From an uncultured Solibacteraceae bacterium (GTDB lineage: Bacteria; Acidobacteriota; Terriglobia; Bryobacterales; Bryobacteraceae), in contig CAVVLD010000118.1 of the NCBI GenBank assembly GCA_963748795.1, positions 3,131 through 67,130 of the forward strand: 64,000 nt of DNA, read 5' to 3'. The notes under the pieces were generated by a model. It was given only the letters and a program-made list of their open reading frames with translations, was not told where the DNA came from and did not search any database. Made by a program: the position numbers and the translations under genes. The stretch's first letter is position 1, and each line of letters begins with the position of its first letter. Positions 11,678 through 22,153 of this stretch are shown here, piece by piece.

Positions 11678-11803
11678 TGCGAGCGAACATTCACAACGGC
11701 GACATCTTTGTGTACGTCTGTTCATAGTTGGACGGAGATACTTAGCGTCCGCGTACTTTCAGCGCGCCTGAAACCGGCAAATCTGGACTAGAATCGGGAT
11801 GTC

Positions 11804-12179
11804 ATGGCCGAAAGCAAGAAAACCATTCTGGTCGTCGATGACGAGCCGGAAGTGCGGAAACTGGTGGGCGCGGTGGTCAACCAGTCGGGCTACGTGGCCC
11901 TCACCGCCGATAGCGGCGAACACGCCCTCACACTGGTCAGGAAGCAGAAAGACCCGCTCGCGCTGCTCATCACCGACGTGGTCCAGCCCGGGCATGAGCG
12001 GACCTATGCTGGCCGACCGCCTCGCGGCCCTTCAGCCGGACCTGAAGGTGCTCTATATCTCCGGCTACGACAACACTCACGTGGTCCAGAAGTACGTAGT
12101 CGAAAAAGGTCACGCCTTGCTGACCAAGCCGTTCAACCTGGAAGACCTTCGTGCCAAGATGACGGCACTTCTGGCCTGA
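11804..12179 (+). CDS. Stand-alone CheY-like response regulator receiver (one frameshift near 11990)
   Basis: KTILVVDDEPEVRKLV ... LLITDVV then (frame of ORF 11799..12179) PGMSGPMLADRLAALQPDLKVLYISGY ... LTKPF. The switch lies inside cagCCCGGGcat. Confidence 0.8.
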
Positions 12180-12208
12180 GCGCGATTCAGTGCTAACATC
12201 ACGAAGAC

Positions 12209-12858
12209 GTGACCATTCGGCCCGCCAGCGACCGCTCTATCCTGGTTTCTTTCGGCGATGAAATCTCTCTCGCAATGCACCGGCAGGTGCTCGGGCTAAC
12301 GCGCACTCTGCAAGGCGTCCGCGGCATTCTCAACCTGCATCCCGCCTTTTCCACGCGTGCTGATCGATTTCGATCCGCGATTGCGCACCCACGCCGAAAT
12401 CGAGGCCCTGGTGCGGGAGCGCCTGGCCGCCGCCACGCACGAGCCGCTCCCGAGCCGCGAACCGTGGAGATTCCGGTCTGCTACGGCGGCGAATTCGGGC
12501 CGGACCTGGAAGACGTGGCCCGTCACAATTCGCTGACGCCCGCGCAAGTGGTCGAACGCCATTCCGCCGCCGAGTACGTGGTCTACTTCGTGGGCTTCGC
12601 CACCTGCTTTCCGTATCTCGGCGGGCTGCCGGCCGAACTGGCCACGCCGCGCCTTTCCGCCCCGCGCAAGCTGGTGCCGGCCGGCAGCATCGGCATCGCC
12701 GGCGCGCAGGCCGGCGTGTACCCCATCGCCTCGCCCGGCGGCTGGCGGCTCATCGGACGCACGCCGCTGCGTCTGTTCGACCCTCAGCCGAGCCACCGGC
12801 GCTCTTGCGGATGGGCGACCGCCTGCGCTTCGTACGCCTGCCGGAGTCGCCCCTGTGA
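12209..12858 (+). CDS. pxpB: 5-oxoprolinase subunit B (KipI/allophanate hydrolase subunit 1 family), frameshifted
   Basis: [21 protein letters not shown] ... NLHPAFS ... [19 protein letters not shown] ... [19 protein letters not shown] ... [24 protein letters not shown]. The stop TGA 12856..12858 overlaps the GTG of the next gene. Confidence 0.75.
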
Positions 12859-13744
12859 GCCGGATCCACGTTGTCTCACCCGGCATGCAGACCACGGTGC
12901 AGGACCTGGGCCGCTTCGGCTTCGCCCACTTTGGAGTCTCCGCCTCGGGCGCGGCCGATGCGCTGGCGCTGCGCGCCGGAAACCTGCTGGTGGGCAATGC
13001 CGAGAACGCCGCGGCGCTGGAAATGACCCTGGCGGGCGGCGCTTTCGAGTTCGAAGGCGATGCGGTGATCGCCCTCACGGGCTCGGATTTCGGCGCCGGC
13101 CTGCCGCTGTGGACCGCCATCGAGATCCGCGGCGGCCAAACCGTGCGCTGCGGCGCCACGCGCACCGGCGCGCGCTGCTACCTGGCCGTGCGCGGCGGCA
13201 TCGCCGTTCCCAAGGCGATGGGCAGCGCGTCGGTCCACATCGTGACCGGAGTGGGTGGACGGCCGTTGCGCAAGGGCGACATGCTGCCGGTGGGCGATGC
13301 CGCGGTCCGCAAACCACGGCCGGCGGCTCGCCAGGTGCCGGAATACGTGCGCGGCGGTTCGCTTCGCGTCACCGCGGGACCGCAGGCCGATTGGTTCGCG
13401 GGCGAACTGCTGGCCTCTCCCTACACCGTCACCGAGGAATCCAATCGCATGGGCCTGCGGCTCTCGGTCCGGCCATTCCGAGCCATGCCGGCCACATGCT
13501 CACCGAAGGCGTGGCGCTGGGCGCCATTCAGGTGCCGCCCGACGGCCAGCCCATCATCCTCTTCGTGGAGCACCAGACCACCGGCGGCTACCCCAAGCCG
13601 GCCAACGTGATCTCCGCGGATTTCTGGCGCCTGGGCCAATTGCGCCCGCGCGACCAGGTTCGCTTCGAGCAAGTTACTATCGAGGAAGCCGTCGAGCTGC
13701 TGCGCGATCAGGAGCGCTGGCTCTACAGCCTGGGACAGCGGTAA
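12855..13744 (+). CDS. pxpC: 5-oxoprolinase subunit C (KipA/allophanate hydrolase subunit 2 family), one frameshift near 13480
   Basis: [30 protein letters not shown] ... NRMGLRL ... [41 protein letters not shown]. Pieces lie in ORFs 12855..13610 and 12209..13744. Confidence 0.75.
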
Positions 13745-13749
13745 CGCTT

Positions 13750-14436
13750 ATGACTATCGACCTGAACTGCGACATGGGAGAACTGGAAGACGCGGCGCAT
13801 GAAGCCGCCCTGATGGAGTACATCACGTCCGCCAACATCGCCTGCGGCGGACACGCCGGAGACGACGCCATCATGGAGCGGACCGCGCGGCTGGCCATGG
13901 AGCGCGGCGTCCGCATCGGCGCCCATCCCGGCTATCCCGATCGCGCCAATTTCGGCCGCATCGAAATGCCGCTGACGCCGAGGCGATCGAGAGCACCGTG
14001 CTCGAACAGATCCAGCGGCTGGACGGCATCGTCAGGCGCCTGGGCGGCGAGATCGTGCATGTGAAGCCTCACGGCGCGCTCTACAACGTGGCGGTGCGAA
14101 ATCGCGAAGTGGCGCAGGCCATCGGCAGGGGCGTGGCCCGCTGGAATCCGCGCATCCCCATCTTCGGCCTGGCCGCATCGCCCATGCTGGATGTGTGGCG
14201 CGAAATGGGGCTTGACGGCCACCGCCGAAGCATTCGCCGACCGGCGCTACGAGCCGGACGGCACGCTGCGCAATCGCAAGTTCCCCGATGCCCTCATTAC
14301 CGATCCCGCCGCCGCCGCCGCGCAGGCCGTGCGGCTGGCGCGCGAGGGCAAAGCCGAGACCATCTGCGTGCACGGCGATACTCCGGGCGCCGTCGCCATC
14401 CTGAAAGCCTGCCGGGAGGCGCTGCTAAACCAGTGA
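13750..14436 (+). CDS. pxpA: 5-oxoprolinase subunit A (LamB/YcsF family), two frameshifts
   Basis: IDLNCDMGE ... [11 protein letters not shown] ... [14 protein letters not shown] ... [10 protein letters not shown] ... [17 protein letters not shown] ... [11 protein letters not shown]. Pieces lie in ORFs 13255..14064, 13998..16604 and 14191..14436. Confidence 0.8.
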
Positions 14437-16086
14437 TGAAATTGCTCCTGCTGCTGGCCGCTGCCGTTCCGCTCTTCGGCCAGACGACTCAGTGCACATA
14501 CAAGCTTTCGGCGGGAGGAGTCGCCGTGAGTGCCGCCGCCAGTGTTGCCGGCAAGCTCCCCTCGTTCACCGTGACCACTCCGGGCACTTGCCCGTTCGTG
14601 GCAGTCACAGCGGCCACCTGGCTGCACATCCAGGCGCCCGCGAAGGGCACGAATTTCGCGGGCACGAGCCAGGTATCTTTTTCCGTGGATGCGAACACCA
14701 GCGCGCAACTCCGTACCGACCAGATCCTCATCTATCCCGGCACGCAAGTGACTCCCGACAGCCAGTCACTCGGATACGTAGTGGCTCAAGTGGCGGGTAT
14801 CTGTGACTACTCCCTCTCCGCCTCCTCAGCCACCGTACCGGCCACCGGCGGTTCCGGAAGCTTCACCGTCAACACAGGCTGCACCTGGGGCGCCACTACC
14901 AGCACCTTCATTACGGCAACTGCGCCGAACGGCACGCTGGGCACCGGACCCATCAATTACCAGGTCTCCGCGAATCTTTGCGCCGCACCGCGCACCGGGC
15001 TGATCACGCTGCAAACGGGATTGGCGAATCCTCCGGTCTTCCAGATCACGCAGGATGGGTCACTCTCCAATTTCACGCTCTCGCCCGCCGGCGTGACTGA
15101 CCCGGCGGGCGCACTCACCAATCAGAAAGTGACTGTGACCACCGGCGCCGGCTGTCCCTGGAGCGCCTATACCGATTCGGCCAACTGGCTGCACCCCACG
15201 GGCGCCTCGGGAACCGGCCCGGGCGTTGTGACTTACTCCGTGGATACCAACCAGGGCGCATCCCGAACCGGCCACATTTATTTTCAATCGGGCGTCGATC
15301 TGACGGGAAACCCGATTCTGGCCGCGACTCTGACTGTGACTCAGCAGGCAATTCAGGCCACCGGGCCGATCCTGGCCGCCGTGGTGAACGACGCCAGTTA
15401 CGACATCGGGACGCCTGCGCCCATATCCATCTCGCCCGGCGAGATTGTGGCGCTGTTCGGCAGCAACCTGGGACCTGTTGCGGGAGTCGTCAACACGCAG
15501 ACCTTTGGAACCAGCCTGGGCGGTGTGCAGGTGATGTTCGGAAATACCGCCGCACCCCTGCTCTACGTCTCTGCCGGCCAGATCAACGCCGTGGTGCCTT
15601 ACGCAACCGGCGGCTCCGAGTGTGGCGGTGACGGTGAGTTACAACAACTCGAATTCGCCGGCGTTGACGGTGCCGGTGCAGGCGGCGACGCCGGGGATTT
15701 TTTCCTACGATCGCTCCGGCAGCGGACCCGGCGCGATTCTGAATCAGGACTACAGCGTCAACTCCGCGGCGCGCCCGGCCGCGAAAGGCAGCGTGGTGGC
15801 GATCTACTGCACCGGAGCGGGAGTCACTGTGCCGGCATCCACGGATGGCGCGCTCGCCACGCTCACTCCGCCCTTTCCGAGCCTGGCCGCCCAACCGGTA
15901 ACCGTGACCATCGGCGGCCTTTCGGCGGACGTAGTTTATTCCGGCGCAGCGCCCGGCGCGATCAACGGCCTGACTCAGATCGATGCCGTCGTGCCCGGCG
16001 GGTTGAAATCGGGTTCCTCGGTTCCCGTGGTGGTGACGATTGGCGGCGTCTCGAGTCAGGGCAATCTCTCGATGTCCGTTCAGTAA
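14436..16086 (+). CDS. Secreted multi-domain protein with BACON/Ig-like repeats and a TIGR03437-type (Solibacter uncharacterized C-terminal) domain; one frameshift near 15610
   Basis: Signal peptide [17 protein letters not shown]. There are three repeats of the type CxYxLS...GGSGSFTVxTxxGCxW. The C-terminal part reads PGEIVALFGSNLGP ... APLLYVSAGQINAVVPY ... PGIFSYD ... GSVVAIYCTGAG ... YSGAAPGAINGLTQIDAVVP. Pieces lie in ORFs 13998..16604 and 15622..16086. Confidence 0.7.
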
Positions 16087-16665
16087 ACGGCCGGGCGAGC
16101 GGTATCCTGTGGAGATGCGAGAATTCAAGCTGGCGATCCTCCGCGCTTTGCATTGCGCGAATCGCAGTCCTGACATCGCTTCTCGTGGTCCCTGCCGCGG
16201 TTGCCTCCGATGTGCCCGATTTTTCCGGCGTATGGGTGGAGACACAGCCCGAGAGCGGTCCGCCCATGAGGTTGCAAGTGACTCAGTCCGGCTCAAGACT
16301 GCAGGTTCGAATCAGTTTTCGCGATGACTACTTCCCGGACGCTGTCTTCCGTACAGCGACGATCGAAAACGGAGCCGCGAGTTGGACCATACCGCAAGGC
16401 TGTATCGCACGATTCCGCTGGCTGGGCTACAACTACGATAATCCGGGGTTAACCACGTTCACGCTATCGCTTCGCGAGCCCGCCGAGTCCGGAGAATCTG
16501 GCCCGCTGCTCGTCTATGTGCAGAAGATCCATTGGGACGTGCCGTGTGCCAGTAACCATCCGATCGGCACAGAGCAGGTTCAGAGAATATTGAGGCGGCG
16601 GTAGCCCGGGGCAGCTAGAATGAGCCATGCGCTCGTTCATCCTAGTCATCACAAAGCGCCTGCGC
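15642..16665 (+). repeat. Direct repeat copy 1 (about 1.02 kb), paired with 19748..20763
   Basis: Aligned by eye base for base with 19748..20763, with mostly scattered single-base differences and a few small indels. It covers the last ~145 codons of the TIGR03437 gene, the small downstream gene and the first codons (MRSFILV) of the next gene. Confidence 0.9.
16115..16604 (+). CDS. Small secreted protein of unknown function (copy 1; one frameshift just after the start)
   Basis: MREFKLAILRAL (frame of ORF 16040..16327), then IARIAVLTSLLVVPAAVASDVPDFSGVWVETQPESGPPMRLQVTQSGSRLQVRISF...NHPIGTEQVQRILRRR (tail of ORF 13998..16604). Signal peptide present. No family recognised. Confidence 0.5.
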
Positions 16666-16776
16666 TCTTGAAATTCCGGGGGAGGGGTCAACGCGATATC
16701 CCTACGCGTCTTGGCGTGATCCTCTTCTTCGCTTCTCAGGCGTTGAACAAGTTGCTCCTTCCGCTTCGATTCAGGG

Positions 16777-17679
16777 TCAAAGGTTGGAATGCGCACTAGG
16801 ACGCACGCAATCCAGGAAACCGGCATCCTGTCTCCACGCGTGCAGACGGGGGCAGGTTATTTGGTTCCGGGGATGCGCGGCATACCTTCCGAAGCTGTCT
16901 TCCACGAATGCATGCAGATCGTAGAGGCGGGTACCGGCTTTGAACAGGTAGGATCCCGGCAGCGACATGGCCCGACCGAGCTCCGGGTAGAGCGGCCATA
17001 CACAGCTACTTAGCAATTCGTCCGGAACATACGACTCTACTAGCCGAGCATCGACCTCAATACCCAGTCTGTGCATGATTTCAGCAGCCAGATCCGCCAA
17101 CACGAACAGCTTGGGGTGGTTAATGGTGTGCATAAAGACCCCGCGCTGGGTCCACGAGCGGTAGAGCTTTTCGAAAGGAAAATCAAATTGTCGACCGACC
17201 ACCAAAAGGGCTTGCTGAGAGCTTGCCCAAGCGTCGAAATATCCGGCGCGCTGGTAGACGCTGGCCCGGAACATCCCCACCGTCTCTTCCACCCCCATGC
17301 CCTCCGTATAGCCGAACAGCGCCAGTGCGGAATTGTAGTCGCCCAGCGCTGAATGCACAGGATGGCCGGTATCCTTACGGCTGGCAAGTACACAATCGGG
17401 GTGAAAGGCATGGAAGTTTACCGGTGGACAGATCATCAGATTTCCGCACGCAGCTTTTAGGACAGGCAGCAAGTCCGGTTCGCCGAATAGATTTTCCAAA
17501 GGTGCTATCGCGATCAGCTTGTCGTAAGTAGCAAACTCGGCCAGCATTTCGCCCTTATTGCGAAAACTCAAGGGAAACTCCGGTAGAACGTAGAGAGTGC
17601 TGACAGTAGCAGGGTGATAAAAGCGCAGACACCTCCCAATCCCATTACTGAGGCAGTTCCCTACGATGCCTATTCGCAC
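16777..17679 (-). CDS. WcbI-like polysaccharide-biosynthesis-associated protein (tentative)
   Basis: Intact 300 aa ORF. It has the N-terminal IVGNC motif, FHAFHPD, GDYNSALALFGY..G...EET and FMHTINHPKLFVLADLAAEI, which I recall as features of the WcbI domain family. No HMM was run. Confidence 0.45.
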   Translation of the reverse strand: MRIGIVGNCLSNGIGRCLRFYHPATVSTLYVLPEFPLSFRNKGEMLAEFATYDKLIAIAPLENLFGEPDLLPVLKAACGNLMICPPVNFHAFHPDCVLASRKDTGHPVHSALGDYNSALALFGYTEGMGVEETVGMFRASVYQRAGYFDAWASSQQALLVVGRQFDFPFEKLYRSWTQRGVFMHTINHPKLFVLADLAAEIMHRLGIEVDARLVESYVPDELLSSCVWPLYPELGRAMSLPGSYLFKAGTRLYDLHAFVEDSFGRYAAHPRNQITCPRLHAWRQDAGFLDCVRPSAHSNL

Positions 17680-18806
17680 GAGTCACCGTTCAACCCATGT
17701 GGTTGTGGTTTCACCGCTGGAACTTCGCTCTCGATGATGTCATCATCGCAAACAACGGCTTGCATGGCAGCCAGCTCGCTTCGGAAGTAGGTCTTGTCCG
17801 GAAACGACGCGCCGGAGATTGCCTGCGGGGCGCCATCGGCCAAAAAGTGGGAGCAAAATACTCGCATCACATGGCCGAGGCCGAACTCACTTACTGATCG
17901 TAAGTCATTCTCGTAATATCTACCCTGCGCATGTGGACCAGTTACGATTTCGTAGGCAGGAAAATAGGCCACCCGCGCCCGCGCAGCACAGCAGGATTCC
18001 GCGGCTACTCGGAGTATAGACTTACTAAGGCAGGTAGCAGCTAGGACATGCCGCGGCTGGTAAGTGGCCCTGAGTGGGACGGGAGATACCGTCAGAACCA
18101 CCCGGCAGCGGGAATTGACGCTACGCAAGCGATCGACGAAGGCTAGCAAATCATCGGTCACGTCGGCGCAGGAATAATTCGAGAAGCGATACAGCGCCGG
18201 ATGCCAATCCCCAGCCGCCACTCCAGGAGCCAGCGGCAAAAGCGCCCCATCCTCCTTGTATTCCCAGGCTTCCGTAAGTCCCAGAGTAGAACACCAGGAC
18301 GTCGAGCTCCTCGAACAGCCGCCGCACACAGGCCAAGTGCTCCCTTCGATCATCCTCCAGAGCCTTTACAGAAAGAAAGCCACCGGGTTTAATACGCGGC
18401 CGGAAGGGATCCACATATTCGTTGGACGGGCCGCGCCAATGGGACAAGCAAGGTCGAAAACGGCCATACGCCCGGTCGAAAAGCTGCACCAACTGCCGGG
18501 CTGTGTAAATGTTTCCGTACCGTGCGGAAAGGGCGCATGTCCCTCCCTCTCCCCAGCGGGAACTTGTTCGGCCACGAAGTAGTGAAATCCCAGAGCCTGG
18601 AGATTGCGCGAGAGATGCTCGGCAAAGCAGCTTCCCGCGCTGGCAATGGCATCATTCCTGTTGATGAGGAACGGCGAGTTAATGAGCGGATCTACCGCGA
18701 ACGGTGGAACTGCCGCCACTGCTCTGCTCCAAAACGCGTGGTCCGGCAGTTCGGAGTAGGGATTGTGGCCAGGTTTCTGCGAGTCCGGATCGCGCATTAG
18801 GTTCAT
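17670..18806 (-). CDS. GSCFA-family protein (SGNH-like, function unknown), two frameshifts
   Basis: Eponymous motif ASAGSCFAEHLSRNL in ORF 18366..18806, then RYGNIYTARQLVQLFDRAYGRF (ORF 18151..18492 frame), then TLGLTEAWEY ... VVLTVSPVPL ... YFPAYEIV (ORF 17670..18353). Confidence 0.65.
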
Positions 18807-18984
18807 TCCGAAATTCTAACCCACGGCTGAACCCCACGGGTTAGCACAAAAGCTCTGGCTTGCGAGGAAGTCCGAACGACCGGCGTCCAAGTGCACCGCA
18901 CCGACCGGCTCTCCGTTGTGCTAGCCTTCCAAAAGGTTTCGAAAGCAGAGCATCCGAAGTAGTCTGTTTCCAGAAAGCAAAGCT

Positions 18985-19683
18985 ATGACAAGAGACGAAA
19001 TTCAAGCCCAGGTAGATCGCATTAAATGGTGGCACCAGATCGATTTGGGGCAAGGCATTATTACTCCCGGGCTCGATCCTACCATCGATCGTGTCCGCCT
19101 CCTGGGTTTGCCCAACGACCTTCGAGGCAAAACCGTTTTAGATATTGGGGCTTGGGATGGAGCTTTCGCATTTGAGGCGGAACGCCGGGGTGCCAGTCGT
19201 GTTCTGGCTATCGACGAGTTCATTTGGGCTGGCAAGGGTTGGGCTTCCAAAGAGGGCTTCGACGTCGCACGACGTATTTTAAATTCTAATGTGCAAGATA
19301 TGTTGATCGATGTCTATGAAATTGCACCGGAGAACGTCGGCCTATTCGACCTGATAATATTCTCTGGCGTCCTATATCATCTGCGGCATCCCCTATTGGC
19401 GCTCGAACACGTAGCCAGCGTTTGCAAAGACCAGCTCATTTTGTCTACACATATTGATCTGATCAGCGTGCAACGGCCGGCGATCGCCTTTTATCCAGGC
19501 AAAGAATTAGCCGGCGATCCGACGAACTGGTGCGGCCCGAATCTTCCGGCACTAGAAGCCATGCTCCGGGACGTTGGTTTCGACCGTGTGGAGGTTGTCG
19601 ATTCCAGTCCAGCACCCGAACCCTACGACATCGATAAAATCTACCGAGGGTGGGTTACCGTCCACGCTTGGAAGACCAGCTAA
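18985..19683 (+). CDS. Class I SAM-dependent methyltransferase (DUF1698/CmoB-like N-terminal pattern)
   Basis: Intact 232 aa ORF. Motifs: WWHQIDLGQGIITPG, motif I VLDIGAWDGAFAFEA, and FDLIIFSGVLYHLRHP. Confidence 0.75.
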   Translation: MTRDEIQAQVDRIKWWHQIDLGQGIITPGLDPTIDRVRLLGLPNDLRGKTVLDIGAWDGAFAFEAERRGASRVLAIDEFIWAGKGWASKEGFDVARRILNSNVQDMLIDVYEIAPENVGLFDLIIFSGVLYHLRHPLLALEHVASVCKDQLILSTHIDLISVQRPAIAFYPGKELAGDPTNWCGPNLPALEAMLRDVGFDRVEVVDSSPAPEPYDIDKIYRGWVTVHAWKTS

Positions 19684-19705
19684 TGGCACTGAACAAATTG
19701 GAATT

Positions 19706-19734
19706 CTCGTCAAGCAGAATTCTTATCAGACGAG
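19706..19734 (+). terminator. Hairpin after the methyltransferase gene
   Basis: CTCGTC aagcAGAATTCTtatca GACGAG lies 23 nt after the stop. The stem is short and there is no T-tract, so this is a weak call. Confidence 0.3.
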
Positions 19735-19776
19735 CAAGCTTGGTCGCAGAACAACTCACTTTCACCGGCGCTGACG

Positions 19777-20193
19777 GTGCCGGTGCAAGCGGCAACGCCG
19801 GGGATTTTTTCCTACGATCGCTCCGGCAGCGGGCCCGGCGCGATTCTGAATCAGGACTACAGCGTCAACTCCGCGGCGCGCCCGGCCGCAAAAGGCAGCG
19901 TGGTGGCGATCTACTGCACCGGAGCGGGAATCACTGTGCCGGCATCCACGGATGGCGCGCTCGCGACGCTCACTCCGCCCTTTCCGAGCCTGGCCGCCCA
20001 ACCGGTAACCGTGACTATCGGCGGCCTTCCAGCGGACGTAGTTTATTCCGGCGCAGCGCCAGGCGCGATCAACGGACTGACTCAGATCGATGCTGTCGTG
20101 CCCGGTGGATTGAAATCGGGCTCCTCGGTTCCCGTGGTAGTGACGATTGGCGGCGTCTCCAGTCAGGGTAATCTCTCGATGTCCATTCAGTAA
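19777..20193 (+). pseudogene. 5-prime-truncated copy of the TIGR03437 C-terminal domain
   Basis: ORF 19777..20193 (PVQAATPGIFSYDRSGSGPGAILNQDYSVNS...SSQGNLSMSIQ) matches the last 138 residues of the 14436..16086 product almost residue for residue. It lacks a signal peptide and all upstream domains. Confidence 0.7.
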
Positions 20194-20221
20194 ATGGCCG
20201 GGCAAGCGGTATCCTATGGGG

Positions 20222-20712
20222 ATGCGAGAGTTCAAGCTGGCGTTCCTCCGCGCTTTGGCATTGCGCGAATCGCAGTCCTGACGAGTCGCTTCTCGTGGTC
20301 CCTGCCGCGGTTGCCTCCGATGTGCCTGATTTTTCCGGCGTATGGGTGGAGACACAGCCCCCAGAGCGGTCCGCCCATGAGGTTGCAAGTGACTCAGTCC
20401 GGCTCAAGAATGCAGGTTCGAATCAGTTTTCGCGACGACTACTTCCCCGCTGCCTTCCGTACAGCGACGATCGAAAACGGAGCCGCGAGCTGGACCATAC
20501 CGCAAGGTTGTACCGCACGATTCCGCTGGCTGGGCTACAACTACGATAATCCGGGATTAAACACGTTCACGCTCTCGCTTCGTCAGCTCGCCGAGTCTGG
20601 AGACTCCAGCCCTCTGCTTGTCTATGTGCAGAAGATCCGTTGGAACGTGCCCTGTGCCAGTAACCATCCGATCGGCACAGAGCAGATTCAGAGGATACTG
20701 AGACGGCGGTAG
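20222..20712 (+). CDS. Small secreted protein of unknown function (copy 2; several frame changes)
   Basis: MREFKLAFLRAL..., VVPAAVASDVPDFSGVWVETQP (ORF 20295..20549 frame), and SGPPMRLQVTQSGSRMQVRISF...NHPIGTEQIQRILRRR (ORF 20194..20712). Paralog of 16115..16604. Confidence 0.45.
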
Positions 20713-20734
20713 CCGAGGGGCAGCAGAATGAGCC

Positions 20735-21248
20735 ATGCGCTCGTTCATTCTAGTCGCCTGCGCAACTGCCTTATGTGGGCAGACAGTTATGGAATCGCGG
20801 GCACGACGAGTGTCACGCTTGGAACAGCCCTTGGATGACCTCGCCAGGCAATGGCTGCTCGATCCCTTACCTCAACACAGAGCTTGGGGGGCGAGATTGG
20901 CCCAGCCGTGTTGGGGACTCCTCGCTCGATGCCGACTTAGTCGCCGCTTTGGGCGACCTCGGGTCAGTCGCGGCAGGACCGGAGGACGACGAGCACAGAA
21001 TGCGTCTCGCCCTGCTTGACGCCCTGATACAACGCGGGAGCATGGTTCCAGAGGAAGCCGGTCTATCCCTGTTCCGGCAGTATCCCGCTCAGGCGCTGAT
21101 TATGTTGTATCGGAGAGGTTGTCCTCACCTTGCAACCAGCCTTGCAATACTGAACAGAGCGATTGCCGACGAAGCTTGGCTGGCGGCAGCAGGTGCCTGG
21201 CCCGACAGCCAGGAGGGCCTGTCGAGCTATTGCAACGTGTGCGAGTGA
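20735..21248 (+). CDS. Hypothetical secreted protein (frameshifted; may extend further downstream)
   Basis: Signal-like MRSFILVACATALCGQTV (ORF 20735..21019), then ORF 20775..21248 (DADLVAALGDLGSVAAG...LLDALIQRG...ALIMLYRRG), vaguely HEAT-like. Plausible continuations lie in other frames to about 21564. Confidence 0.35.
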
Positions 21249-21799
21249 AGGCCCGGATCGAGGTTTTCGACGTAGAAAGAGAGAGGACTATTGGCGGCAC
21301 TCCGGGCGGCCCCCTGGCCGGCATCATCGGTTCGATTCCCAGCGAGTGGCCCCCGGAAACTACTTAGGGCTTGCGATTGATCGGGAAGCCGGGGCAGGCT
21401 ACGTTCTATTGAGCGGCGGACCGCATCCCCGTATATTACGTGAAAAGATCGATCTCCGAGTGACTGGCGCGAATCGGACTGTAACTGGCATCGTGGAGAC
21501 CGGAACCAATTCGCCCTGGACATTCTTGCCAGTAGCGCTGGGTCACCTTTCGGCCGCCCTCTAGAACCGGTAGGCCGAGCGAGACTGCACTGGGCGACGC
21601 CAGAACAAGGCCACATCGATTTGGAAGCGCTCGCGGACGACCTGCAACGGAGGTACTCCCAGTTGCTCTCCGGCTTGATGAGTCGGAAACTGTTGACCCC
21701 CCTTGAGCGCAGCCGCTGCCCCAATCTGTCGATATCGAAGTCTATGACAATCGCATCGATCGGAGTCAAGCTCTCCCGATCCTGGCAGTTCACGAACAG

Positions 21800-22153
21800 C
21801 TTAAATGATCTTTCAAAAACCAACTGGTCGCCCGCCAGCGTACCGGTTCGTTGCGCGGTGCCCGCGGGAAGTTCCAGGATGGAACGCGCCGAAAGGCACA
21901 TCGAAAGCCGCCACGCCGGCACCGCGTGACGCACTTTGCGGACTTTCTTTTGCTTGTCCAGATACACCAGGTCGATCGGAAATTTCATAAAGAACGTGTG
22001 GACCGATTCGCAAGGAGTGATCCACAGTCCCTGTCCGGCGTCCAGGCGGTCGTGTTTCAACAAACCGGTCCGCCGGGTCGAACTGCTATCCGCCACGTCC
22101 ACGGCATCGCCTAAAACGGTGTCGCGGGTCTGATTGCGCACCAATACTTTCAA
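21800..22153 (-). CDS. DUF192 (COG1430) family protein; 3-prime end uncertain
   Basis: The first ~115 residues of ORF 21227..22153 show the DUF192 pattern (MKVLVRNQTRDTVLGDAV ... GLLKHDRLDAGQGLWITPCESVHTFFMKFPIDLVYLD ... ILELPAGTAQRTGTLAGDQLVFE). The remaining ~190 residues are Arg/Ser-rich and look like read-through after a missed stop near a T run at about 21805. Confidence 0.55.

Follow-up and report, generated by a model that had tools for sequence, protein, structure and literature searches.

A GSCFA–WcbI gene pair in an acquired insert of a Solibacteraceae genome is a candidate two-part O-acyltransferase

In a 64,000-nt stretch of contig CAVVLD010000118.1 from an uncultured Solibacteraceae bacterium (hereafter the window, in whose coordinates all positions are given), a small island at 16777..19683 carries a GSCFA-family gene, a WcbI-like gene and a gene for an S-adenosylmethionine (SAM)-dependent methyltransferase, which raises the question of whether these three genes work together and on what. 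An earlier note on this DNA had read them as an uncharacterised trio that could be a horizontally acquired module for acyl or methyl decoration. We favour, with moderate confidence, a reading in which the GSCFA and WcbI-like proteins are the two halves of one soluble, cytoplasmic, acyl-coenzyme A (CoA)-dependent O-acyltransferase, most likely an O-acetyltransferase, which sits as an orphan in an acquired insert, with the breaks in the GSCFA frame being assembly errors and the methyltransferase being a passenger. For the window, this means that the trio is probably a pair plus a passenger, and that the GSCFA gene probably looks broken only because of a noisy assembly.

All three family assignments of the earlier note hold in Pfam, and every motif it quoted is found in the translations. 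The WcbI-like open reading frame (ORF) matches PF18588 over profile positions 2-203 of 205 (E = 6.5e-25, 88.4 bits, cut-off 29.2), and the methyltransferase ORF matches Methyltransf_9/DUF1698 (PF08003; E = 1.9e-10, 40.7 bits, cut-off 23.8) and also Methyltransf_23. The GSCFA profile is matched in two pieces. A 227-aa ORF at 17670-18353 covers profile positions 99-237 (E = 4.8e-34, 118.6 bits, cut-off 25), and a 146-aa ORF at 18366-18806 holds the N-terminus only (positions 2-24, E = 0.0034, 17.6 bits, under the cut-off of 25), the GSCFA motif being located in this N-terminal piece. The family and the motif given earlier for this gene therefore stand, while the single open frame does not. The reported 10-nt overlap between the GSCFA and WcbI-like genes is real, with the GSCFA stop codon TAG at 17672-17670 and the GTG start codon of the WcbI-like gene at 17679-17677; the two genes are translationally coupled, which was counted toward their pairing. 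The methyltransferase gene is indeed divergent, separated from the GSCFA gene by a spacer.

We next asked how often these genes are found together. A total of 80 genome loci and 80 metagenome loci were collected solely by similarity to the WcbI-like protein of the window (for the metagenome relatives, a single-protein query returned 0 and an alignment query 245), and the 160 loci were then searched by tblastn (E <= 1e-5) with the intact GSCFA protein of G008, a genome of the same family only, and with the window methyltransferase as queries. GSCFA is present in 67 of the 80 genome loci and lies within 300 nt of WcbI in 64, which comprise 17 in the order GSCFA>WcbI, 3 in the order WcbI>GSCFA, 43 divergent and 1 fused, where fused means on the same strand and in frame with no stop between the two matches; the other GSCFA matches lie within 3 kb in 2 loci and farther away in 1. 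The metagenome loci gave a similar picture, with GSCFA in 57 of 80 (11 GSCFA>WcbI, 2 WcbI>GSCFA, 26 divergent and 18 in frame without a stop). G008 itself has the two genes immediately adjacent, GSCFA intact at 362 aa and WcbI at 314 aa. The earlier note had made its trio depend on the co-occurrence of the three genes elsewhere; in these neighbourhoods the pair recurs and the trio does not.

The two domains are also found in single proteins. Pfam confirmed this for 9 of the 10 fused metagenome loci submitted, the tenth (L145) being uninformative because the ORF was taken from the wrong strand. In the protein collection, all 27 of 27 homologues with a length of 526-2000 aa carry both PF08885 and PF18588, in the order GSCFA-WcbI in 2 and WcbI-GSCFA in 25, and the two fusions with the gene order of the window are 55% and 54% identical to the window WcbI-like protein. 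A 1425-aa protein (L158 7656-11933) combines DUF4214 and three stretches of WcbI domain with GSCFA at its C-terminus, and is encoded beside Capsule_synth, sulfatase and Methyltransf_24 genes. Because the two families are linked in loci and fused in both orders, and WcbI alone showed no activity, we propose that they act as mutual partners; linkage and two-way fusion point to such a partnership in one large clade. Conceivably, an indel at the 10-nt overlap conceals a fusion and the two window genes are really a single one; against this idea, the closest homologue (P0002, 71% identity) is a separate 300-aa protein too. In the literature searched, GSCFA and WcbI are not named together and PF18588 is not named.

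The structure model of the WcbI-like protein has a mean predicted local distance difference test score (pLDDT) of 94.6, and its sole clear fold match is WcbI of Burkholderia pseudomallei (4bqn/4bqo), with an E-value of 1e-9 and template modelling (TM) scores of 0.69/0.67 for 4bqn_B and an E-value of 2.3e-3 and a TM score of 0.26 for the next match. A profile of 22 family members finds 4bqn by sequence as well (E = 3.2e-6). Cys9 and His188 of the window protein are invariant in the 22 sequences and align with Cys14 and His201 of 4bqn, which are described as contacting the acetyl group of acetyl-CoA (PMC4104973). By analogy, the window protein is predicted to bind CoA or acetyl-CoA. The same paper reports that WcbI, solved in 2013 with a novel fold, binds CoA tightly and presents no acceptor site, and that an unidentified partner was proposed (PMC4104973).

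GSCFA belongs to the SGNH clan of Pfam and was listed in 2022 as one of five SGNH families without a known function and without a structure (PMC9487903). A search of solved structures by sequence gave no relative of GSCFA (best E-value 0.82). Both the structure model and the complex prediction described below were built on the intact G008 orthologue of the same taxonomic family rather than on the window copy. For the model (pLDDT 76.3, predicted TM score 0.80), Foldseek gives esterases of the CE2 (3.7e-4) and GDSL (5.1e-4) types as its top matches, and VIA-align gives SGNH acetylesterases and O-acetyltransferases, namely Ape1 (Z 11.3, root-mean-square deviation 4.3, 201 aa), PatB (Z 9.0) and OatA (Z 8.7), with all 50 top rows being SGNH-type, indicating that the modelled GSCFA protein has an SGNH fold. 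All 28 sequences compared share the Ser-Cys of the GSCFA motif. The alignment holds no D-x-x-H at the expected place of block V, and an invariant His is found at three other positions. No signal peptide or membrane segment was seen by eye in the translations.

A precedent for O-acetylation by a GSCFA protein exists in Pseudomonas entomophila. According to PMC12828459 (December 2025), the last step toward a detoxin-like product, an O-acetylation, depends on each of PipG (a GSCFA protein), PipF and PipD, deletion of pipG, pipF or pipD leads to non-O-acetylated products, pipG is complemented only together with the always-adjacent pipF, and the Cys of the GSCFA motif matters in PipG. GSCFA genes are also reported in detoxin-type clusters (PMC9503745). 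We considered PipF as a WcbI protein, and this was ruled out by the supplement text, which describes PipF as SGNH-type (PMC12828459); WcbI and 4bqn have 0 mentions in the text and three supplements of that paper. O-acetylation by GSCFA with an adjacent partner thus has a precedent, whereas the partnership with WcbI has none.

Taken together, the pair most likely represents a two-part enzyme, often fused, that O-acylates glycans in the cytoplasm. In the mechanism that we propose, the WcbI-like half would hold acetyl-CoA in a cradle between the conserved Cys and His, and the GSCFA half, with its SGNH fold, would take the acyl group on the Ser-Cys of the motif and pass it to the acceptor, most often a glycan of the capsule or O-antigen type. 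The data show the family and fold of both proteins, their conserved residues, the linkage and fusion of their genes, their patchy distribution and the structure of the insert; from these we infer that the two proteins bind each other, that the reaction is a transfer rather than a hydrolysis, and which acyl group and acceptor are involved. A complex prediction for the intact G008 pair, with a 28-row alignment per chain, scored 0.48 (0.46, 0.48 and 0.49 in the individual runs), against 0.00 for the best of 3 controls; the pLDDT of the partner is 88, and at least 75% of contacts are common to the runs. Of 157 solved complexes, 116 attain the mark, against 2 of 215 mismatched pairs; at 0.60 or below, it is attained by only 18 of these solved complexes and by both of the passing mismatches. 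These counts apply only approximately to a prediction run on our own alignments. We take this as mild support from modelling for binding, whose prior was already high from the fusions. More tentatively, and with rather less confidence than in the enzyme itself, GSCFA may be the unidentified partner of WcbI-type CoA-binding proteins, and the two may define a new class of soluble two-domain O-acetyltransferases in which the acetyl group would pass from acetyl-CoA over the Cys/His of WcbI and the Ser-Cys of GSCFA to a nascent cytoplasmic glycan.

The neighbours of the pair bear on the acceptor. A Pfam scan of 24 pair-bearing loci found polysaccharide genes within ~6 kb in 12 (L009, L011, L019, L106, L136, L150, L151, L156, L158, L159, L161 and L163), namely ABC-2/ABC (Kps-type) transporters, Poly_export, Capsule_synth (KpsC/S type), glycosyltransferases, Bac_transf and Polysacc_synt_2. 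These 12 loci include most of the fused forms, and in 9 of the 14 metagenome loci examined a fused form lies within a Kps/ABC-type glycan locus. The best reading is that the pair usually resides in capsule or O-antigen loci and is an orphan cassette in this genome. As the earlier note had remarked, glycosyltransferase and flippase genes are missing here: none of the 60 other stop-to-stop ORFs in the rest of the window matches a glycosyltransferase, a flippase or a polysaccharide exporter (E <= 1e-6), and the combination of glycosyltransferase and export genes that marks a capsule or O-antigen locus is absent among them. Because no glycan-synthesis genes lie beside it, the orphan pair in its 5.7-kb insert would act on a polymer whose synthesis is encoded elsewhere in the genome. 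The acyl role suggested by the earlier note is supported for the GSCFA-WcbI pair.

Some loci hint at other acceptors and donors. A DUF4915-WcbI-GSCFA fusion (L162 6387-9701) adjoins flagellar-type genes (FliI-like ATPase, FliN-like), and a 693-aa protein with a C-terminal GSCFA domain (L206 1477-3558) adjoins a Maf flagellin glycosyltransferase gene; a link to flagellin glycan modification is possible. AMP-binding (acyl-activating) genes lie beside GSCFA or WcbI in L028 739-6998, L066 227-5257, L225 and L227, with two tandem WcbI genes each in L028 and L066, which hints at acyl donors other than acetate.

The pairing has limits. In a sample of 401 evenly drawn Pseudomonadota genomes searched for both families, GSCFA gave 40 matches from 26 genomes and WcbI 23 matches from 13 genomes, and 8 of the 40 GSCFA matches have a WcbI match within ~450 nt. 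Judged from these sequences, the pairing is a property of one clade and not of either family overall. The other WcbI genes in this sample encode larger proteins, some with TPR repeats or beside AMP-binding enzymes, and a recurrent ORF of ~255 aa, unassigned in Pfam, lies downstream of the other GSCFA genes. In L196 1378-3251, L197 608-2487, L199, L205, L210, L212 and L213, a WcbI-less GSCFA gene is followed by a translationally coupled ORF of ~255-270 aa, for which Pfam gave no family save one weak match to SGNH PF19040; in L196 and L197 the GSCFA/small-ORF pair lies between two subunit genes of a CoA transferase. This ORF is probably a PipF-type SGNH partner. We also considered the ~255-aa ORF and the long N-terminal parts of big GSCFA proteins as hidden WcbI domains and rejected them, the hhalign probabilities being 3%, 0.2% and 0.2%. 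In these comparisons hhalign placed the N-terminal strand of WcbI and its GNCQ motif on the AGSCFAQ motif of GSCFA with scores that are not significant, and the two halves may be similar in the nucleophile-bearing strand-loop.

The methyltransferase behaves differently from the pair. It was found in 0 of the 160 WcbI-bearing loci (0 of 80 genome and 0 of 80 metagenome loci, tblastn at E <= 1e-5), and the trio of the earlier note is not a recurrent unit. Its family is very large, with all 8000 of 8000 scored candidates at E <= 0.001, and it is a separate family that is mostly unlinked to the pair. From these sequence comparisons, the divergent DUF1698-type methyltransferase appears to be a co-resident passenger and not an enzyme component, and it is possibly a glycan methylase in its own right, independent of the pair. 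The protein is full length compared with its homologues, which are up to 83% identical and carry the automatic names tRNA (mo5U34) methyltransferase and DUF1698 in their sources. Homologues at most 57% identical are found in 16 of 40 related genomes. The closest genomic relatives (55-57% identity) lie behind Ldh_2 in 5 of 6 loci, and Ldh_2 (malate/L-lactate dehydrogenase family 2) and methyltransferase, with GT1 upstream where the flank allows, form a conserved small operon in L097, L098, L099, L100 and L101. In L103, a longer, 46%-identical relative adjoins the gene of a Wzt_C-domain O-antigen transporter. Other SAM-methyltransferase families (Methyltransf_11, 21, 24 and 25) are found near the pair in 6 of the 24 scanned loci (L011, L150, L151, L156, L158 and L166), and only in this form does a combination of acyl and methyl decoration recur. 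Of the acyl/methyl module in the earlier note, the general association has some counterpart in these loci, while the part played by the window's own methyltransferase does not.

The three genes lie in a strain-specific segment, 16096-21810, recognized as such because two genomes of the same genus, G007 (95% identity) and G001 (87%), share its flanks, up to 16095 and from 21811, but hold other DNA between them, namely unrelated DNA of 4064 bp (G007) and 2096 bp (G001). These two are the closest same-genus relatives, and the spot, downstream of a surface-protein gene, varies within the genus. At the G007 site (L094 1710-5772), a glycoside-hydrolase-like ORF is accompanied by one for an IS630-type transposase and by a Soli_cterm domain fragment in inverted orientation, and the G001 site (L095 3596-5690) carries two unrelated ORFs. 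In the window, ~1-kb direct repeats with 93.2% identity over 1010 columns and 9 gaps bracket the three genes, which occupy exactly the 3.1 kb from one repeat to the other and have in common a low guanine-cytosine (GC) content of 0.525-0.578. The inter-repeat space as a whole has a GC content of 0.554 against 0.631 for the window, and sliding 3.1-kb windows never go lower, with a minimum of 0.558. The segment is thus absent from the same site in close relatives and deviates in composition, as a genomic island does, and the rest of the window encodes housekeeping functions. Pfam found no integrase, transposase or phage genes in the insert and no match for the island ORFs besides the three genes; NCBIfam holds no model for the WcbI-like or GSCFA proteins, and a promoter and terminator scan of 16500-19900 gave sites no more numerous than in shuffles, with no promoter-like match in the spacer. 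A search of 40 related genomes found the WcbI-like gene in 1, and none of the 7 genomes from the same genus gave a match; the sole carrier, G008, encodes a protein 40% identical to that of the window, and the closest database matches are 71%, 55% and 54% identical. With this patchy distribution, the site differing in the two closest relatives and the low GC content, the horizontal acquisition suggested by the earlier note is plausible.

The frame breaks in the GSCFA gene were located by three-frame translation, by tblastn with the G008 orthologue and by alignment with 19 homologues, all of which agree. Between the two pieces, ~85 codons with several conserved blocks are readable only in another frame, whereas the N- and C-terminal parts share one frame, that is, the two breaks compensate each other; an in-frame stop is present in the sequence as given. 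Assembly indels are the probable cause of the breaks, since the flanking coding DNA, aligned to the 95%-identical G007, has 15 single-base gap events in 3734 columns. The surface-protein gene left of the island, for example, is an intact 550-aa ORF in G007 and is split in the window. Throughout 11800-16100, many conserved genes are split by single-base indels relative to G007, including a response regulator, pxpB/pxpC/pxpA-like genes and the 550-aa TIGR03437-domain surface protein; ten of the 15 gap events fall in 12400-13015, indicating that the assembly is error-rich and that its errors are unevenly distributed. The genome is 6.5 Mb in size with a completeness of 61.6%.

Several observations weigh against a two-part O-acyltransferase at this locus. 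WcbI and GSCFA proteins are both without a known biochemical activity, WcbI by itself gave no acetyltransferase activity (PMC4104973), and the partner of PipG is a small SGNH-type protein of 240 aa, not WcbI (PMC12828459). GSCFA is absent from 13 of the 80 genome loci with room on both sides and from 6 of the 80 metagenome loci with such room, a further 17 having flanks too short to tell, and 14 of the 23 WcbI matches in the 401 Pseudomonadota genomes, which belong to other clades, do not adjoin GSCFA. The complex prediction is rated as 'weak support' only, half of the scanned loci (12/24) have unrelated neighbours instead of nearby polysaccharide genes (including those of Methylobacterium and Bryobacterales), and the best structural neighbours of GSCFA are esterases, making hydrolysis possible. 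The GSCFA frame is broken in the sequence as it stands, and the WcbI-like and methyltransferase genes are free of indels though the neighbouring DNA has many. Alternatively, the pair may be real but work differently, as a de-O-acylase (esterase) or on something other than a glycan (a protein, a lipid or a small peptide or polyketide, for example), which we consider rather unlikely. The top fold matches to acetylesterases, the loci without polysaccharide genes and the AMP-binding genes near the pair in L025, L028 and L066 would fit such a role, as would the fact that genetic data on GSCFA exist only from work on a peptide natural product (PMC12828459) and that GSCFA genes lie in detoxin-type clusters (PMC9503745). 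However, the WcbI half is predicted by analogy to bind CoA or acetyl-CoA and keeps the acetyl-holding residues, which fits the handling of a donor, the Pip genetics show acetylation and not deacetylation (PMC12828459), and fused forms lie within Kps/ABC-type glycan loci in 9 of the 14 metagenome loci examined. A wider role for the island, in which all three genes form one acquired acyl-plus-methyl decoration module and the methyltransferase shares the substrate of the pair, appears very improbable to us. The exact fit of the three genes between the repeats, their common low GC content, the methyltransferases of other families near the pair and the relative beside the Wzt_C-domain transporter gene are in its favour, but none of the methyltransferases neighbouring the pair in the 24 loci is of the DUF1698 type, the window's own is missing from all 160 WcbI-bearing loci, its huge family is mostly unlinked to the pair, its closest genomic relatives lie behind Ldh_2 and the G008 pair has no methyltransferase beside it.

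The remaining explanations concern the DNA itself. If both GSCFA breaks were real, the cassette would be a decaying remnant and the enzyme dead in this genome. The two breaks and the in-frame stop, the truncated gene copies at the insert edges and the unbroken WcbI-like and methyltransferase genes (900 and 700 bp), which would be odd if errors were uniform, point that way, but the other frame still preserves every conserved residue between the breaks, the breaks offset each other, and the neighbouring conserved genes carry their 15 single-base indels in 3.7 kb unevenly, in a genome of only 61.6% completeness; we therefore hold decay to be improbable. Alternatively, the whole island could be an artefact in which strain variants were mis-joined at the ~1-kb near-repeat, given that this is a metagenome-assembled genome. 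The 93% identity of the repeats, the GC content of the island, which is the lowest of any 3.1-kb stretch in the window, and the error-rich assembly are compatible with a mis-join. The contig is, however, continuous across both junctions, and the same spot holds different inserts in G007, including the IS630-type transposase ORF, and in G001; because of these different inserts we take the insertion spot to be real and variable, and a mis-join to be hardly credible. The reading that we retain is that of an acquired two-part O-acyltransferase whose GSCFA gene is probably intact in the cell.

Coordinates of the features of the island and its surroundings in the window.
Feature	Position	Strand	Remarks
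WcbI-like gene	16777..17679	-	300 aa, intact; Pfam PF18588, structure model, residue match to 4bqn
GSCFA-family (SGNH-fold, from modelling) gene	17670..18806	-	~378 codons; frame broken near 18545 and near 18293
Divergent intergenic spacer, GSCFA / methyltransferase	18807..18984		178 bp
Short DUF1698/CmoB-like class I SAM methyltransferase gene	18985..19683	+	232 aa, intact; Pfam
Strain-specific segment at variable spot	16096..21810		flanks common to G007 and G001, interior not
Direct repeat copy 1	15643..16647		3' end of TIGR03437-domain surface-protein gene and small ORF
Direct repeat copy 2	19750..20755		truncated surface-protein 3' end and second copy of small ORF

If the reading of the two as a new class of O-acetyltransferases is true, two orphan families would gain a function at once, and the pair would be a portable cassette that alters surface-glycan chemistry on landing in a new genome. 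O-acetylation of capsules and O-antigens shapes recognition by phages and the immune system. A soluble, transferable two-gene O-acylation cassette would also be a useful marker in annotating glycan loci.

The passenger and the two proteins of the pair can each be set against known systems. The methyltransferase shares PF08003 and the class I SAM fold signature with CmoB (tRNA uridine-34 carboxymethyltransferase, TIGR00452) and TIGR04290, but falls short of their NCBIfam thresholds, with 58.9 vs 275 bits (TIGR00452), 55.2 vs 209 (PRK15068) and 100.7 vs 300 (TIGR04290); compared with the DUF1698 profile of 315 positions, the match of the 232-aa protein starts at position 112, the N-terminal part being absent. 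The WcbI-like protein shares its Pfam family, its fold over the whole length and the conserved Cys/His with WcbI from the capsule CPS-I cluster of B. pseudomallei, at 13% identity in the structural alignment, and both proteins appear to need a partner. They differ in that coupling or fusion to GSCFA is found on the side of the window protein, and in that the window is not a capsule locus. In the PipD/PipF/PipG complex of the pseudotetraivprolide cluster, the GSCFA protein PipG likewise needs a partner encoded next to it for O-acetylation, and the motif Cys that matters in PipG is invariant in the GSCFA family of the window. In contrast to the window pair, the Pip complex has PipF and PipD as partners and no WcbI-type CoA binder, and its acceptor is a peptide-polyketide; neither the ORF list nor Pfam revealed a PipF-like or PipD-like ORF in the island, where the adjacent partner of GSCFA is the WcbI-like protein.

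Island- or phage-borne cassettes that modify the O-antigen include O-acetylases that change the serotype, and like the island described here they place a modifying enzyme on acquired DNA without synthesis genes. The serotype-converting O-acetylases known to us are membrane AT3 proteins. PatA/PatB, OatA, AlgI/J/F/X and AT3-SGNH are two-component O-acetylation systems based on SGNH domains (reviewed in PMC9487903). Membrane partners, of the MBOAT or AT3 type, are characteristic of them too, and they act outside the cytoplasm. In these systems, an SGNH domain serves as the final transferase and the acetyl donor is handled by a separate module, the same division of labour that we propose for GSCFA and WcbI. 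The donor module of the window pair would differ from theirs in being a soluble protein with the WcbI fold.

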